Shown: positions 1,369 to 40,885 of the stretch, in pieces | Layout: every line of letters begins with the position of its first letter | Numbering within the stretch: position 1 is the stretch's first letter | Virus record (IMG/VR): IMGVR_UViG_2645727945_000025 | Location: 1 to 43,691 of that record | Reading direction: 5' to 3' (one strand) | DNA: 43,691 nucleotides | DNA from: a virus | Taxonomy: Duplodnaviria > Heunggongvirae > Uroviricota > Caudoviricetes | The notes under the pieces: generated by a model | Seen by the model: only the letters and a program-made list of their open reading frames with translations | What the model was told of the DNA's origin: nothing | The model's database searches: none | Position numbers and translations under genes: made by a program

Positions 1369-1444
1369 GCCGATATAGCTCAGTTGGTAGAGCAGCGCAT
1401 TCGTAATGCGAAGGTCGTAGGTTCGACTCCTATTATCGGCACCA
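1369..1444 (+). tRNA. thrW: tRNA-Thr (anticodon CGU)
   Basis: 76-nt sequence GCCGATATAGCTCAGTTGGTAGAGCAGCGCATTCGTAATGCG...GGCACCA folds as a cloverleaf with CGT anticodon and encoded CCA; classic phage integration target. Confidence 0.9.
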
Positions 1445-12060: not shown

Positions 12061-12777
12061 TCAAACCAGCCTTAGTTTTGTCTCAATTGCAACGCCTATA
12101 ATCTTGCAGTTTCCATTGATTGGCACGAGAGGCCATGCAGGATTAAGTCCCTTGAGGTATTTATTTCCGCCGTCGATTATCAGCTTCTTGAATGTTGCTT
12201 CGTTAGAGTCAGAAAGTTTTGCTATGACCAAGCTGCCGTTGATCGCCTCCCTTCCGGTATCGAAAAGAACGAATGTTCCCTCTGGAATGCTTAACCCAAC
12301 CGGTGCCGTCATTGAATCACCTTCCACTTTAAGCCAGAACGCATTACCTTGAATATGCGCGTCAGACTCAAGCCAAACATCTATGTCTTTAATGGTGTAT
12401 GGTTCGCATGCTTCACACCACGAGCCAGCCTGGATACTGCTTAACACCGGATACCTCTTTCCTGCTCTGTATTCCCCTGCATACCTTACGTTGGCATCGC
12501 TCTTAAGGCTTTCTGCCTGTTCTGCAACCTTGGCAGCAATTGACTGGCTAAAATCAGCAATTGAGACTTGCAACAATCGTGCAAAACCAGATGCAACCTC
12601 AACGTTTAGCGCGTTTCTGCCATTAAGATAATGCCCTACCGCTCCTTGGGTGATACCCAGTTCATCAGCGATTGAGTATTGGGTTATTCCCAATTCTTTC
12701 TTTTTTGACTCATACAAAGCCTTAAGACGCTTAGCGTCTTCGAGCTGTTCTGTCGTCAGTGATTTTTTATTTTCCAT
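12061..12777 (-). CDS. cI: CI repressor (HTH plus S24 LexA-like autocleavage domain), 238 aa
   Basis: Recalled similarity to lambda CI throughout (LTTEQLEDAKRLKALYE..., FWLKVEGDSMTAP..., C-terminal S24 domain). Confidence 0.9.
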   Translation of the reverse strand: MENKKSLTTEQLEDAKRLKALYESKKKELGITQYSIADELGITQGAVGHYLNGRNALNVEVASGFARLLQVSIADFSQSIAAKVAEQAESLKSDANVRYAGEYRAGKRYPVLSSIQAGSWCEACEPYTIKDIDVWLESDAHIQGNAFWLKVEGDSMTAPVGLSIPEGTFVLFDTGREAINGSLVIAKLSDSNEATFKKLIIDGGNKYLKGLNPAWPLVPINGNCKIIGVAIETKLRLV

Positions 12778-12877
12778 AGCTTAATTCTAATAGCTAAGGT
12801 ACTTAAACTAAAAATACCCTAAGTATTGATTGCTTTGAATACCTGTAGTATTCTTTGTTCATGGTTAATAACGGAGA
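12778..12877. promoter_or_regulatory. OR operators with divergent PRM and PR
   Basis: AATAC-N5-GTATT palindromes at 12813-12827 and 12837-12853; minus-strand TAGAAT 7 nt upstream of the cI ATG (leaderless-style PRM); plus-strand TTGATT...TATTCT before cro. Confidence 0.6.
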
Positions 12878-12883
12878 GTGCAT

Positions 12884-13078
12884 ATGATTCGAATGACACT
12901 TGCCGATTACGCCAAAATCCATGGACAGGCTAAAGCAGCCAGTGACTTTGGTGTAATCCAGTGCGCTATCAGCAAGGCCATTCTGGCAGGCCGTAACATC
13001 ATGGTTACGGTAAAGCCTGATGGCAGTGTGATTGGAGAGGAAGTTCGTCCTTTCCCAAGCAACAAGAAAAACAAATAG
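12884..13078 (+). CDS. cro: Cro repressor (64 aa)
   Basis: Recalled similarity to lambda Cro ([11 protein letters not shown]...FPSNKK); GGAGAG RBS. Confidence 0.85.
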
Positions 13079-13084
13079 TAACAC

Positions 13085-13128
13085 CGCTCTTTAACAGTCA
13101 TGGTCATCATTCCCGCCGAAATGCGGGA
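13085..13128 (+). promoter_or_regulatory. nutR (boxA CGCTCTTTA plus boxB hairpin)
   Basis: CGCTCTTTA at about 13085-13093; boxB TCCCGCCGAAATGCGGGA at about 13111-13128. Confidence 0.55.
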
Positions 13129-13186
13129 ATACAACGCGCATACGTTGATGCGCATAACTTCTTATTTGTTAAGGAAATACTTACAT

Positions 13187-13465
13187 ATGGAACTTACAAG
13201 TACTCGCAAGAAAGCGAATGCAATTACAAGCAACATCCTGAATCGAATTGCTGTACGTGGTCAGCGAAAGGTTGCTGATGCATTAGGGATCAATGAATCG
13301 CAAATTTCGCGATGGAAAGACAGCTTTATCCCAAAGATGGCCATGCTTCTGGCTGTACTGGAGTGGGGTGTTGAAGACGAGGAGTTGGCGGAACTGGCTA
13401 AGAAAGTAGCCAGAATGCTGACAAAAGAAAAAGCCCCGAAGAACGGCGAATTCTTCGAGGCCTGA
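13187..13465 (+). CDS. cII: CII transcriptional activator (92 aa)
   Basis: Recalled similarity to lambda CII (SQISRWK...MLLAVLEWGV); AAGGAAA RBS before the internal ATG of track ORF 13100-13465. Confidence 0.8.
   Translation: MELTSTRKKANAITSNILNRIAVRGQRKVADALGINESQISRWKDSFIPKMAMLLAVLEWGVEDEELAELAKKVARMLTKEKAPKNGEFFEA
13421..13460 (-). terminator. oop-like antisense terminator overlapping the cII 3' end (approx.)
   Basis: Minus strand: CC(T)CGAAGAA-TTCGCCG-TTCTTCG(G)GG hairpin followed by CTTTTTCTTTTG; CATAAT -10-like element about 65 nt upstream. Confidence 0.4.
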
Positions 13466-13499
13466 TGTAGAAAGACTGGATCAATCCACAGGAGTAATT

Positions 13500-14144
13500 A
13501 TGACATACGAAAATGACAAATTCCAGGTTCTGAAGAGCATGAAGGTGCCAGATGATTTTAAATCAAATGGCTTTGTTTATGTGCTTTCGAATGAGTGCAT
13601 GCCAGGAATTTATAAGATTGGGATGACTAAGCATTCACCAGAAGTTAGGGCTAAAGAAATTTCAGCCTCTACTGGCGTTCCTAAGCCATTTAAGGTGATA
13701 GCAGCCTTTCATTCAAATAATCCCGCATCAGATGAAAAACTCATTCATAAAGCCTTTGCAAAAGAGAGGCTTAGTGATAATCGAGAGTTTTTCAAGCTTG
13801 AAGATAATGATCTTTCTGAATCTCTAAATGAAATAAGGGCGCTGGTTGGCCCTGAAAGAAATGGCGAGACGGCAGAATACGCAATTTACGACTCATTCAT
13901 TTCTTTTCGCCATGAAAATGAGCTTGATCTTAATGAGGAGCTTATAGAGCAAGGTCTGGGTAGTGTAGTTGGTCATCTTCCTGCGGTGAAAAATTTCCTT
14001 ATTCGCGCCGGAATTGCTTACGCGAAGCAACTGATAAGCAAATATAACTCATCGATAGTTATTAATACAGATGGCAGTGTGGTGATGGTTAAGTCTCTTG
14101 AAGCCCAATGCTTTGATGCGGAGGTTGGAAATGAGCCTGGCTGA
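13500..14144 (+). CDS. T5orf172/GIY-YIG-superfamily domain protein (214 aa), moron between cII and O
   Basis: N-terminal motif GFVYVLSN...GIYKIGMT...R...F.V...E.LIHKAF...REFF; strong AGGAG RBS; AT-rich. Confidence 0.6.
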   Translation: MTYENDKFQVLKSMKVPDDFKSNGFVYVLSNECMPGIYKIGMTKHSPEVRAKEISASTGVPKPFKVIAAFHSNNPASDEKLIHKAFAKERLSDNREFFKLEDNDLSESLNEIRALVGPERNGETAEYAIYDSFISFRHENELDLNEELIEQGLGSVVGHLPAVKNFLIRAGIAYAKQLISKYNSSIVINTDGSVVMVKSLEAQCFDAEVGNEPG

Positions 14145-14973
14145 AGTATTTTACCTGCCGAAGAGTGAACCTGTTGAACAGGAGCGAAGAGTGGCTGATA
14201 TCGATGATGGTTACACCAGATTCGCTAACGAGCTGCTGGAAGCTATCGCAAGTGCCGATTTAACCGCTCGCCAGTTGAAAGTTATGCTGGCCTACGTCCG
14301 GAAAACATATGGATTCAATAAGAAAACAGATCGAATAGCCGATGAGCAAATTGCTCAGTTAACAGGACTGTCAAGGCAGAATGTTAACAAGGCTAAAAAA
14401 GAACTGATTTCAATGAATTGCCTGTTTATGGATGGAAATCAAATCGGTGTAAACAGTGAGGTATCTGCGTGGCAATTCAGCAAGTGTCTCCAAGTTAGCA
14501 ACTTTGTCTCGAAGTTAGAGACAAAAAATGTCTCCAAATTAGAGACACTCAATGTCTCGAAGTTAGAGACACACAAAAGACATTCTTTAAAGACAAAAGA
14601 AAATATTAATAACCCCCCTATATCCCCCAAAAAAGTTTCTCAGAAGTTCGACCCGCTAGAAACAGAGTTGCCTGATTGGTTATCAGCAGAAACATGGTTG
14701 TCGTGGGTTACCTATCGCAAGGAGATAGGTAAGTCGATCAAGTCTAAGCAAAGTGTCACTCAGGCTATCAACGTTCTAAGCAGAAGTCTGGAGAAGGGAT
14801 ATACACCTGAAGAAATTATAAACCAGAGCATCGCCAGTGGTTGGCAGGGGATTTTTGAGCCCAAGACTTCAAAGGGGAAATCTCAACCGAGGCCGCAGCA
14901 TCGAGCTATGCAGGAAAACTTTGCCACCAAAGATTACGGACAAACTGAAATGCCTTCATGGGCGCAGGAGTGA
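14131..14973 (+). CDS. O: Replication initiator O (lambda O-like N-terminus)
   Basis: N-terminal similarity to lambda O (DDGY.R..N.LLEA...ADLT.RQ.KV.LA..RKTYG.NK..DRI); ori iterons inside the gene; start at Met12 (alternative 14098). Confidence 0.8.
   Translation: MSLAEVFYLPKSEPVEQERRVADIDDGYTRFANELLEAIASADLTARQLKVMLAYVRKTYGFNKKTDRIADEQIAQLTGLSRQNVNKAKKELISMNCLFMDGNQIGVNSEVSAWQFSKCLQVSNFVSKLETKNVSKLETLNVSKLETHKRHSLKTKENINNPPISPKKVSQKFDPLETELPDWLSAETWLSWVTYRKEIGKSIKSKQSVTQAINVLSRSLEKGYTPEEIINQSIASGWQGIFEPKTSKGKSQPRPQHRAMQENFATKDYGQTEMPSWAQE
14484..14615. repeat. Origin of replication: four ~19-bp iterons (TGTCTC-N7-GAGACA) plus AT-rich tract
   Basis: Tandem copies at about 14484-14502, 14504-14523, 14528-14548, 14550-14572, then an A/T-rich stretch. 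Confidence 0.65.
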
Positions 14974-14975
14974 AC

Positions 14976-15821
14976 ATGACGCTGGATGAAAAGATCTTCC
15001 AACTGGAGAAAAAACTTGCAGAATTGAGTTCTCCGCCAATTGCTATCGAGCATACAGCTGTAGAAATTGGCACTGGCATCTGTGAAAAACATGGTGAGTT
15101 TGAGCAGCGTAACCGTTACTCGACTGGGCCAATTAAGTTTGCCTCAAGACCTAGCGAATGCCCGGAATGCATGAGAGATGAGCTTATTCGGCTACAGGCA
15201 GAGAAGATTAAAATCGACGAGGAATCACGTAAGCGCAATGTCGAGTTTCTGTTGAATAATCTTGATATTCCTGAACGATTCAAGGGTTGCACACTACAGA
15301 ACTACGAGCCAGTCAACGACGATGCAAAGAGAGTGCTCAGGGTGTGTCAGGCATACGCCAGCAAATGGCCTGAGAGGTTACAGAAAGGCGGTGGGCTGGT
15401 TATGTGTGGAAAGCCTGGTACTGGAAAGAATCATCTTGCACTGGCTATCGCCTGGCACGCAATTACGGAACATCAAAGCTCAGCTATTTTCACAACGGCG
15501 CTGAAAATTGCCAGAGAATATAAATCAACATGGTCGAAAAACTCCACCCGCACTGAGGATGAAGTGATCCGACAGTTCACTAAACCTGACCTGCTAATTA
15601 TCGATGAGGTTGGTGTGCAGTTTGGAAGCGAGGCGGAAAAGATGATCATGTTCGAAATCATCAACACCCGCTACGAGCGTATGAAGCCAACAATCCTGAT
15701 TAGCAACCAGAGCAAAGATGAACTGTCTGCATTCATTGGTGAGCGTGTTATTGACAGGATGAATGATGGCGGCGGATGCACCCTTGCGTTTACATGGGAT
15801 AGTTACAGGAGCAGATCGTGA
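14976..15821 (+). CDS. DnaC-like helicase loader (IstB-type AAA+ ATPase)
   Basis: Walker A GKPGTGKNHLA and Walker B LLIIDEVG; GGAG RBS; follows O. Confidence 0.8.
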   Translation: MTLDEKIFQLEKKLAELSSPPIAIEHTAVEIGTGICEKHGEFEQRNRYSTGPIKFASRPSECPECMRDELIRLQAEKIKIDEESRKRNVEFLLNNLDIPERFKGCTLQNYEPVNDDAKRVLRVCQAYASKWPERLQKGGGLVMCGKPGTGKNHLALAIAWHAITEHQSSAIFTTALKIAREYKSTWSKNSTRTEDEVIRQFTKPDLLIIDEVGVQFGSEAEKMIMFEIINTRYERMKPTILISNQSKDELSAFIGERVIDRMNDGGGCTLAFTWDSYRSRS

Positions 15822-16108
15822 CTGGAAAAGAAATCATCCTGGAATATCTGAAAACTCATGAACAATTCTCCCCACATGAATTAGCACTGATCACCGGAAT
15901 ACCAAATAACAGAATCGCTCAAGCAGCAAGGCATATGGTGAAACAAGGACATTTGAGTGTTGTTGAGCGTAAGTGGAAGACGGTTATTTATGCAAAACGC
16001 AAAGTGAAGAAGGAGCCAATTAAAAGAAATCCAGATGGTACGGGGTGGGGATGTGCAAATCCAATGACGGCGTTTATTAATAGGGCGCTTATGGAGGTAA
16101 GGCAATGA
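15818..16108 (+). CDS. Hypothetical small HTH-like protein (96 aa, GTG start)
   Basis: Track ORF; AGGAG RBS; GTGA overlap with the preceding stop. Confidence 0.45.
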   Translation: MTGKEIILEYLKTHEQFSPHELALITGIPNNRIAQAARHMVKQGHLSVVERKWKTVIYAKRKVKKEPIKRNPDGTGWGCANPMTAFINRALMEVRQ

Positions 16109-16133
16109 CCATCTACATCACTGAGCTAATAAC

Positions 16134-16164
16134 AGGCCTGCTGGTAATCGCAGGCCTTTTTATT
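16134..16164 (+). terminator. tR2-like intrinsic terminator preceding the nin region
   Basis: AGGCCTGC-TGGTAATC-GCAGGCCT hairpin followed by TTTTTATTT. Confidence 0.6.
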
Positions 16165-16181
16165 TGGGGGAGAGGGAAGTC

Positions 16182-16622
16182 ATGAAAAAACTAACCTTTG
16201 AAATTCGATCTCCAGCACATCAGCAAAACGCTATTCACGCAGTACAGCAAATTCTTCCAGACCCAACCAAACCAATCGTAGTAACCATTCAGGAACGCAA
16301 CCGCAGCTTAGACCAAAACCGAAAGCTTTGGGCTTGCCTTGGTGACGTCTCTCGTCAGGTTGAATGGCATGGTCGCTGGCTGGATGCAGAAAGTTGGAAG
16401 TGTGTGTTTACCGCAGCATTAAAGCAGCAGGACGTTGTTCCTAACCTTGCCGGGAATGGCTTTGTGGTAATAGGCCAGTCAACCAGCAGGATGCGTGTAA
16501 GCGAATTTGCGGAGCTATTAGAGCTTATACAGGCATTCGGTACAGAGCGTGGCGTTAAGTGGTCAGACGAAGCGCGACTGGCTCTCGAATGGAAAGCGCG
16601 ATGGGGAGATCGGGCAGCATGA
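16182..16622 (+). CDS. ninB: NinB recombination protein
   Basis: Recalled near-identity to lambda NinB (MKKLTFEIRSPAHQQNAIHAVQQILPDP...). Confidence 0.85.
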   Translation: MKKLTFEIRSPAHQQNAIHAVQQILPDPTKPIVVTIQERNRSLDQNRKLWACLGDVSRQVEWHGRWLDAESWKCVFTAALKQQDVVPNLAGNGFVVIGQSTSRMRVSEFAELLELIQAFGTERGVKWSDEARLALEWKARWGDRAA

Positions 16623-37522: not shown

Positions 37523-37696
37523 ATGATAGTCAAGTCAGACGCACCAAAGTACCCTTTGCGCATCCCATTAGAGGTTAAGTTAGCAATCGAGAAGTCAGCG
37601 AAAGAAAATGGTCGCTCAATAAATACCGAGATGGTAATGCGGTTAGTGGATAGTTTAAGGCGGGATAGTTCTAAAGGTAATCTAGCAAAAAGTTGA
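37523..37696 (+). CDS. arc: Arc-like ribbon-helix-helix repressor (57 aa)
   Basis: GGAGG RBS; RHH motif ...PLRIPLEVKLAIEKSAKENGRSINTEMVMRL; directly upstream of ant. Confidence 0.7.
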   Translation: MIVKSDAPKYPLRIPLEVKLAIEKSAKENGRSINTEMVMRLVDSLRRDSSKGNLAKS

Positions 37697-37726
37697 AGCC
37701 CCAACTGCTGTAACAGTCAGGGCTTC
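37695..37726 (-). terminator. sar-like antisense terminator in the arc-ant intergenic region (approx.)
   Basis: GAAGCCC/GGGCTTC stem; only on the minus strand is it followed by a T-run (AACTTTTTGC). Confidence 0.4.
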
Positions 37727-37758
37727 GGTATCAACAAAACTTACGAGGTATTATTGAT

Positions 37759-38749: not shown

Positions 38750-40885
38750 ATGACAGACATTACAGCCAATGTGATCGTATCGATGCCTTCGCAACTCTTC
38801 ACTATGGCTCGTTCTTTTAAAGCCGTAGCCAATGGAAAAATTTATATCGGTAAAATTGACACTGACCCGGTAAATCCTGAAAACCAGATTCAGGTTTATG
38901 TGGAGAACGAAGACGGCTCTCACGTTCCTGTATCGCAGCCAATCATCATTAACGCTGCCGGATATCCTGTATATAACGGACAGATTGCCAAATTCGTAAC
39001 TGTGCAAGGCCATTCTATGGCTGTTTATGATGCATATGGGGCGCAGCAGTTCTATTTTCCTAATGTGCTGAAGTATGACCCTGATCAACTCAGGTCTGAA
39101 TTATCAGCTCAGGGTGGAGATAAGATTGTTGGTAGTTCGTATGGCGGAACCGTCTATACAGACTACAGTCCATCAGAATTCATTAAGTTTGCAGAATTCA
39201 CCGTCCCAACAAGTCTTTCAAACAATAGACAAGCCGTTAAATATATAGACGGATTTTGGTATGTATGGAATGGAACATTTCCATACAATACTGGAACGTC
39301 AAATCCTGGTAATAATGACACATGGAAATGCGTTGGACTTCTAAATGGTTTTTCGGTTAATGACGCTCAGAACTTTGGCTTCACAGGGGGTATGGACGAT
39401 GCACTTCCAGCGCTAAATGCGATGATTAGAAGCCCATTTTTTGAAATGTTTTTCCCTATTGGAAGTGAAATTAATATTTCGTCTGACTGGAATCTCCGTT
39501 CAAATTTATATATAAACTTTCACGGTTCAACAATCAACTGGATGGGTGCTGCTTTCTCAAGTTCTGATGTTGTGAATGGTAGCGAGATGGCTATTTTAAA
39601 TACGCCAAATTTTTCAGGTGGAACTACAGGGGCACTCGTAAACCTTCATCTGTCAAACTTAAATATTAAAGCAAATGATTACGCAATAGGCATAAGTGCA
39701 AGGAATATTACAAATTTCTCTATAGAGAATGTTTATGTAGAGAAAGCGCAACGTCAAGGAATTAATGTATCTAATTGCCAGAATGGATGTATTAATCAAA
39801 TAACTCTGAAAGATTGCTCTCCTTTATCTGATAAAGGATTTACTAGTTCACAGCTAGAGAGTTGGGGCGATGGATTGATTGTATGGTATGGAAGCACTAA
39901 CGTATCCATTGATAACATTAGAGTTGAATCAGGAAATAATTCACGAGGAGGTCGCTGCGGTATCTGTATCGATGGTTATGCTCCATCCGGAAAGCCAGAT
40001 TCACGCAATATTTCTGTAAATAACGCTTATGTTTACGGTTATGACAGGCCTATACATACCGAACTATGCGGTATTGTTACCGTAACTAACAGTGTTTTCG
40101 AATACAACTCAGGCTCTGACACGCATCACTTTTTGCAATGTGGTGTCGTCGTGTGGAATGTCCTTGAAACCACTACTTTTATCAACTGCACGTTTCGCAC
40201 AGATATGCGGTTTATGAAAAACTCAGGCGCTAAGGCGAAATTCATAAAATGTAATGTGTACAAAACATCAAGCACTGAGCCTATGTTTATAACAGGTACA
40301 GAGCAAACAGGTATAGTTAATTTTGATGACTGCTTACTTTCTCATGCCGGTGGTGAATGGGGGGCTTGGAACTGTTCATTAAGTTTTAATGGTTGCACGA
40401 TATCATCTGATTCTGCTGGATCTGTTATTAATTTTGGTAGCGAATCCATACCAAAAAATATCACTATTGTTAATTCACATCTGTTAAACACATCAATATC
40501 AGCACTGTTCGCACCTGGATTTACTGAAATTCATCTTTCTAATTCAACAATAAATGGAGATGTTAATTGCGGACCTTCTGCCAGACTTCGTGTAAATTCA
40601 TGCGATATATATGGAGTTGTTACATGCAATAGTGTAATGAGATACAACGGACAGAAACCAAATAAATTAATTTATTTGCAAAATGCAGACCAGCAATACA
40701 ATGGCATGTGGCTAGGAACGCGCCCACCACTAGGTGCTAGACCAGATGGATCTGGAGATTGGTTGAGGGGTGATATAGTTTTTAATCTCGACGCCATAGA
40801 GTCAACACCATTCCAATGGTATTGCGTAACCCCAGGATCGCCTGGAAGATGGGCTGTATCTGGAACTCTTGGCGCAGCTTCTTAA
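38750..40885 (+). CDS. Tailspike (P22 gp9-family head-binding N-terminus plus divergent receptor-binding domain), 711 aa
   Basis: N-terminal ~115 aa recalled as the conserved P22/HK620/Sf6 head-binding domain; remainder AT-rich with repetitive beta-strand-like segments. Confidence 0.9.

Follow-up and report, generated by a model that had tools for sequence, protein, structure and literature searches.

Positions 14485-14612 of the window (the whole stretch of 43,691 nucleotides that was analysed) very probably form the bidirectional (theta) replication origin of a lambdoid or P22-like prophage, built on the design of ori-lambda and lying inside the initiator gene O. An ori-lambda-like origin inside O had been proposed in the first-pass annotation of this DNA, and the comparisons reported here support it: position, copy number and spacing of the repeats match those of lambda and of the annotated P22 origin. 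The anatomy of the region, the constraint on the arms of its repeats (iterons), the co-variation of the iterons with the N-terminal domain of O (N-domain) and with its predicted recognition helix, and the modular exchange of its parts are shown by the sequences compared. What is new is the sequence of the iterons (GTCTC type, with a DnaC-like partner), the design itself being the textbook one of a lambdoid origin inside O.

Gene O (14131-14973, plus strand, 280 aa) was identified from the list of open reading frames (ORFs) and by its match to the Pfam family Phage_rep_O. The ORF as computed begins with a TTG at 14098; the likely start is the ATG at 14131, which has a GGAGG at 14120-14124 (6 nt upstream) and is the start annotated in phage CurroJimenez_Bas106 (hereafter Bas106). 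The product matches Phage_rep_O (PF04492) over the complete model (1-95 of 95, E 3.9e-36), and this is its only Pfam match. The match covers residues 31-125 of the ORF starting at 14098, i.e. positions 14188-14472 (plus strand), and corresponds to the N-terminal DNA-binding domain, the putative iteron-binding part of the protein. Within it the stretch SRQNVNKAKK (14371-14400, plus strand; residues 81-90 counted from the ATG at 14131) is the predicted recognition helix, on the basis of its invariance and of an alignment with the CRP family. Alignments place at 14613-14973 (plus strand) the linker CCCCCCTATATCCCCC (PPISP) and the C-terminal domain, the part that would recruit the helicase loader. 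This C-terminal part aligns with O of Klebsiella phage 6, phiES15 and Gifsy-1 and not with lambda O. The next gene (14958-15821, plus strand) encodes by Pfam a DnaC/IstB-like AAA+ helicase loader, with matches to IstB_IS21 (E 1.8e-18) and to the Bac_DnaA ATPase (E 9.9e-09); its counterpart is annotated DnaC-like in mEpX1 and Bas106. The start of this gene precedes the O stop codon, and the resulting 16-base overlap (14958-14973) suggests that initiator and loader are translationally coupled.

The iterons are 19-bp dyad-symmetric units, as given by a repeat finder and by reading of the sequence, and are listed here without strand. Iterons 2 (14505-14523, TGTCTCGAAGTTAGAGACA), 3 (14529-14547, TGTCTCCAAATTAGAGACA) and 4 (14553-14571, again TGTCTCGAAGTTAGAGACA) are perfect TGTCTC-N7-GAGACA palindromes found by exact pattern match. 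Iteron 1 (14485-14503, TGTCTCCAAGTTAGCAACT), recognised from the sequence and with the repeat finder, is half-degenerate: its left arm is perfect and its right arm matches at 3/6 positions. Of the four TGTCTC-N7-GAGACA iterons first described, three are thus exact and one keeps only its left arm intact. Likewise the spacing of ~22 bp holds as a mean (22.7 bp) but is not uniform, the start-to-start distances being 20, 24 and 24 bp. In the 43.7-kb window the pattern occurs with zero mismatch at iterons 2-4 only, for a chance expectation of ~0.003-0.005 per window (calculated for an exact match to 12 specified bases). With 2-3 mismatches, 17 matches were found elsewhere in the window versus 16 expected from shuffles. 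Because more distant relatives (L123-L126) have a full palindrome, AGTCTCCAAAAACGAGACA, at the position of iteron 1, the latter is a decayed fourth site, of which the left half is possibly still bound cooperatively.

The last iteron is followed by an A/T-rich tract of 41 bp (14572-14612, unstranded; CACAAAAGACATTCTTTAAAGACAAAAGAAAATATTAATAA), a candidate DNA-unwinding element by its duplex stability and its composition (A24 T9 C5 G3, 80% A+T). The plus strand of the tract is A-rich (GC 0.28-0.30, AT skew +0.5). Among all 3,900 such segments of 12601-16500, the 40-bp one that begins at 14573 shows the minimum of nearest-neighbour stability; compared with the whole window it belongs to the least stable 0.085% (-41.8 kcal/mol versus a mean of -54.1, sd 3.7). 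The A/T-rich region that had been placed after the iterons is thus present, and no other duplex of the replication region is less stable. The tract begins with a conserved block, (A)CACAAAAGA. When the origin of the window is aligned with those of lambda, P22, phiES15 and Klebsiella phage 6, the ACACAAAAGA found directly after the last iteron is invariant; the iterons themselves differ. More generally, this start of the A-rich tract is constant across the enterobacterial lineages of the O family. At its 3' end the tract adjoins the C-rich motif CCCCCCTATATCCCCC (14613-14628), which encodes PPISP. This motif (CCCCCT-N-CCCCC) is seen again in phiES15, P22 and Klebsiella phage 6 as well as in many relatives, and it is here that the homology of mosaics with one another tends to stop. 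It may be kept either as DNA or as a proline linker.

In lambda the origin (39034-39160, within gene O) is made up of four iterons of 18 bp joined to an AT-rich sequence of 38 bp (PMC3349717, PMC7466680). The window resembles it in having four dyad iterons of 18-19 bp inside O, directly after the Phage_rep_O domain, followed by a ~40-bp A/T-rich tract that opens with ACACAAAAGA. The lambda iterons (ATCCCTCAAAACGAGGGAA and variants) start at codon 117 of O with a spacing of 20/24/23, and those of the window at codon 119 with a spacing of 20/24/24. In P22 the rep_origin is annotated in gene 18 (P22-pbi, AF527608), at the same position in the O homologue, and it also shows four iterons (spacing 20/24/23) and an A-rich block, ACAAAAGACA. 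For the window, lambda and P22 the iterons begin 2-5 codons past the end of Phage_rep_O (here the domain ends at 14472 and the first iteron begins at 14485). By its position the array is thus a homologue of proven lambdoid origins.

Disparities nevertheless appear between these origins. The iterons are ATCCCTC-N5-GAGGGAT in lambda and TGTCTC-N7-GAGACA here, where in addition iteron 1 is half-degenerate. The N-domain of O is only ~48% identical to that of lambda, the C-domain is unrelated, and a DnaC/IstB-like AAA+ protein stands in place of P. P22 has iterons of the TTTACC...GGTAAA type, and in that phage a DnaB-like helicase (gp12) takes the place of the DnaC-like loader. The Stx phages 933W and P27 have six lambda-type iterons, and in these phages changes of copy number add in-frame residues to O (PMC7466680). 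Copy number also varies here between close relatives, from 2 to 5, but the Stx-phage iterons have the lambda specificity, are read by a lambda-like O and are used with P. The features of a lambdoid O-type origin are found together in the window, i.e. the position inside the gene, the iteron array, the adjacent A/T-rich tract and the Phage_rep_O initiator; the iteron sequence also appears to be inherited with the initiator N-domain and specific to it. A strict lambda O-P replicon was rejected, as the downstream gene is an IstB/DnaC-like AAA+ gene and the O C-domain has no alignment to lambda. We also rejected an iteron plasmid origin of the Rep_3/RepA/pi type. Such origins are made of direct non-palindromic repeats bound by monomers of Rep_3-family initiators; the units of the window are palindromic and its initiator matches Phage_rep_O only.

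The O gene and the iteron array of mEpX1, N7 and Bas106, which are isolated plaque-forming coliphages, are ~99% identical to those of the window. In the GenBank records of this group, the closest to the window, O and the DnaC-like gene are annotated and an origin is not. In the searchable literature no paper has the exact iteron strings, and papers naming mEpX1 do not deal with its origin. Of 5,426 complete E. coli genomes, 47 (~0.9%) carry the N-domain together with the origin, in every case on the chromosome. The present assignment would locate the unannotated origin of the mEpX1/N7/Bas106 phage group and of the prophages in this ~0.9% of genomes.

To assess conservation, relatives were gathered with the protein sequence of the O N-domain alone (residues 1-117, upstream of the iterons), so that the sampling is independent of the repeats. 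The set comprises 80 viral contigs and 77 genome loci; codon-site statistics were calculated on 40 non-redundant loci and information content on 44 non-redundant arrays. The 65 loci of a pattern-based scan of viral contigs were left out of these statistics, being ascertained on the arms themselves. Conservation over the 44 arrays reaches 98-99% (1.84-1.94 bits) at arm positions 2-6 and 15-18; the values are 0.1-0.8 bits for the linker positions and 0.2-0.7 bits for spacer positions 7 and 10. At the codon level, the third base of the left-arm Val codon GTC, a four-fold site, is C in 40/40 loci for each of iterons 2-4, that of the arm GAG codon is G in 40/40 and that of the arm Thr codon ACA is A in 114/120, counts which are not independent events since the loci are phylogenetically related. 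The contrast within sequences is unaffected by this relatedness: at the third base of Ser TCN, with which the spacer begins, the majority base accounts for only ~0.5, and four-fold sites in invariant N-domain codons of the same sequences have an average majority of 0.67. Because the four-fold arm sites are invariant while the spacer synonymous sites drift, the arms are constrained as DNA beyond coding needs.

The number of iterons varies in frame between prophages that share 98-100% O N-domain identity with the window. Four copies are the norm; L082 has lost 48 bp and keeps iteron 1 and one perfect iteron (2 copies), and L077, L081 and L091 have an additional 24-bp unit (5 iterons). A point change in one arm, giving TGTCCC, was observed in L078.

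We then compared the iteron type with the divergence of the N-domain. At N-domain identities of about 64% and above, (T/A)GTCTC-N7-GAGAC(A/T) sites are found at the same offsets in every locus, the exceptions being five loci at 63-64% identity with TTAGC- or GTCAC-type arms. The GTCTC type is also found at 58% identity in two loci (L135 and L163), and these are the only cases between 58% and 64%. Below ~63-64% identity the same position holds GTCAC-N7-GTGAC, TTAGC-N7-GCTAA, TTACC-N7-GGTAA or GTTAC-N7-GTAAC, and further palindromes at this position are GTCCC-N5-GGGAC, GTCCG-N5-CGGAC and AACCC-N7-GGGTT. The O family (L075-L231) displays at least eight palindromic iteron types at one position.

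When the N-domains are projected onto the query, residues 81-90 track the iteron type. They are SRQNVNKAKK for the GTCTC type (identical in 50/50 distinct proteins), PRQKVNKAKN for GTCAC, HHTHVCKAKN for TTAGC, LPHKCSAAKS for TTACC and AKAHVSVAVR for GTTAC. Between the GTCTC and GTCAC types a single base changes in each half-site, and the predicted helix shows the changes S81P, N84K and K90N; we propose S81, N84 and K90 as candidate residues in the reading of iterons by O proteins. In a search of PDB sequences the stretch containing residues 81-90 (EQIAQLTGLSRQNVNKA) aligns weakly (E 0.057) with the helix-turn-helix and recognition helix of CRP/FNR (EEIAQLVGASRETVNKA), the CRP-family recognition helix SRETVNKA being the counterpart of SRQNVNKAKK. 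Because this weak alignment is the sole link with a solved structure, the assignment of the recognition helix to residues 81-90 is provisional. A single-sequence AlphaFold2 model of O residues 1-130 is of low quality (mean pLDDT 46), and no more than its helix-helix-hairpin order agrees with a winged helix.

In the relatives the C-terminal domain of O is exchanged independently of the N-domain and the iterons. The GTCTC module is associated with the window-type O C-domain and a DnaC-like loader in 38 loci, with the lambda-type O C-domain and P in 15 loci (and 6 mixed), and with a P22 gp12-type helicase in 11 loci. The DNA of Hafnia phage Pocitis76 is 85% identical to the window up to ~14630 only, just beyond the origin. 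The iteron type therefore follows the N-domain lineage and the predicted helix, and neither the O C-domain nor the loader. Since they are adjacent in one gene, iterons and N-domain would move together as a replicon-specificity module, of which these loci provide many natural cases of recombination with DnaC-like, P-like or DnaB-like partners. The iterons had been described earlier as predicted sites of the O N-domain and as the determinant of replicon specificity. Both proposals are consistent with these comparisons, in which the arm type tracks the N-domain lineage and its predicted recognition helix and nothing else nearby. It is also fairly likely that GTCTC iterons and SRQNVNKAKK define an uncharacterised lambdoid replicon-specificity class, orthogonal to those of lambda, P22 and the GTCAC type. 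If this is true, the GTCTC/GTCAC pair and the wider O family would constitute a natural series for the initiator-origin recognition code, useful for building orthogonal phage replicons. The origin itself carries little weight for basic biology because its architecture is that of ori-lambda.

Could the array be a coding repeat only, i.e. an 8-codon unit (NVSKLET-x) duplicated by slippage in the O linker, with no role for the DNA? Iterons 2-4 do share one reading frame, with a 24-bp period of eight codons that encodes VSKLET three times, and near-identical prophages differ in copy number without loss of the frame (L082 has 2; L077, L081 and L091 have 5). But this seems extremely unlikely, because the four-fold arm sites are invariant in 40/40 loci while the spacer synonymous sites drift, and because the units have a perfect dyad that a peptide repeat does not need. 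Moreover iteron 1, offset by 20 bp, is in a different frame from iterons 2-4 and still keeps its left arm, at the same place the palindromes and the encoded peptides are different in other O lineages, and the homologous repeats of lambda are proven O-binding sites (PMC7466680). Just as improbable, in our view, is a role for the palindromes as hairpins, whether in RNA or in single-stranded DNA, or as targets of another protein than O (e.g. a regulator, or a terminator element). A 6-bp stem is possible in each unit, and from one lineage to another both arms change symmetrically (GTCTC/GAGAC to GTCAC/GTGAC), so that pairing would be preserved. The one terminator-like hit of a scan within the origin was iteron 3 plus a T run (minus strand, 14550-14526); we rejected it as a terminator because it consists simply of these two elements. 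However, it is the sequence of the arms, and not pairing alone, that is fixed within a lineage and the same in all copies, whereas independent hairpins would be free to diverge. In addition the arm type tracks the predicted recognition helix of O and is independent of all the other neighbouring genes tested, and the Rfam search gave no match at the origin.

The array could also be an inactive relic in a defective prophage, replication beginning elsewhere or being only passive. The window resembles an integrated prophage (tRNA at 1369-1441, phage similarity from ~1400-2900), iteron 1 is degenerate, and the close relative L082 is without two iterons. This explanation is hardly more probable than the preceding ones: O and the DnaC-like gene are intact, and an origin ~99% identical is found in the plaque-forming Bas106, N7 and mEpX1. 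In lambda two iterons plus the A/T-rich stretch are enough for unwinding, and three iterons for growth (cited in PMC7466680). Since lambda needs only two to three iterons, the three perfect ones should be enough here.

For an active origin inside O, which we favour, we infer by homology with lambda the binding of O, the unwinding, the loading of the helicase and the firing of the origin. Dimers of the winged-helix N-terminal domain of O would bind the 19-bp (T/A)GTCTC-N7-GAGAC(A/T) palindromes, with SRQNVNKAKK as the predicted helix. O on the three perfect iterons and on the half-site of iteron 1 would form an O-some in which the DNA is bent or wrapped, and this O-some would induce melting of the adjoining 41-bp A-rich tract. 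The C-terminal domain of O would bring in DnaB of the host by way of the phage's DnaC-like AAA+ loader, whose gene lies directly downstream. That task falls to P in lambda; as the loader here is not lambda P, the steps after O binding may differ from those of lambda.

The ORF list also contains an antisense ORF of 63 aa with a TTG start (14439-14630, minus strand). No Shine-Dalgarno sequence was found at its start. Stops in this antisense register need specific junctions of sense codons, which are rare in this K/E/T/S/V/N-rich stretch, and when the order of the sense codons is shuffled, 27% of the shuffles leave the register free of stops. Because so many shuffles are also open, the open frame is no evidence of a gene, and we rejected it as such. 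The antisense ORF, already suspected of being artefactual in the first-pass annotation, is a compositional by-product.

Upstream of O the window contains a CI-like repressor gene (12061-12777, minus strand), a 66-aa ORF at the Cro position (12878-13078), named from this position alone, and a CII homologue (13100-13465). A T5orf172/MUG113-domain gene (13500-14144, plus strand, 214 aa; domains E ~1e-15) separates cII from O and runs into the start of O. Bas106 has this gene; mEpX1 and N7 lack it, and in these two an O whose N-terminus is lambda-like comes directly after cII. Beside the replication module, the gene has the look of a moron insertion or of an element of the homing type. At the 3' end of cII, the minus strand has a strong terminator-like hairpin of 14 pairs with a T run (13463-13431), at the position of the terminator of the oop/tO antisense RNA of lambda and P22; P22-pbi annotates one there. 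This hairpin has no Rfam match and no promoter was identified for it. A promoter scan of 12700-15100 gave fewer promoter-like sites than in shuffles. On the other side, the DnaC-like gene is followed by a gene annotated Ren in the closest phages, then by NinB.

Rfam places a tRNA gene (1369-1441, plus strand) near the left end of the window, where the phage similarity starts at ~1400-2900; this region is probably the attachment site of the prophage. Near the right end, it identifies a sar antisense RNA of the P22 immI type (37691-37757, minus strand). Its presence indicates that the element is a mosaic with P22-like parts.
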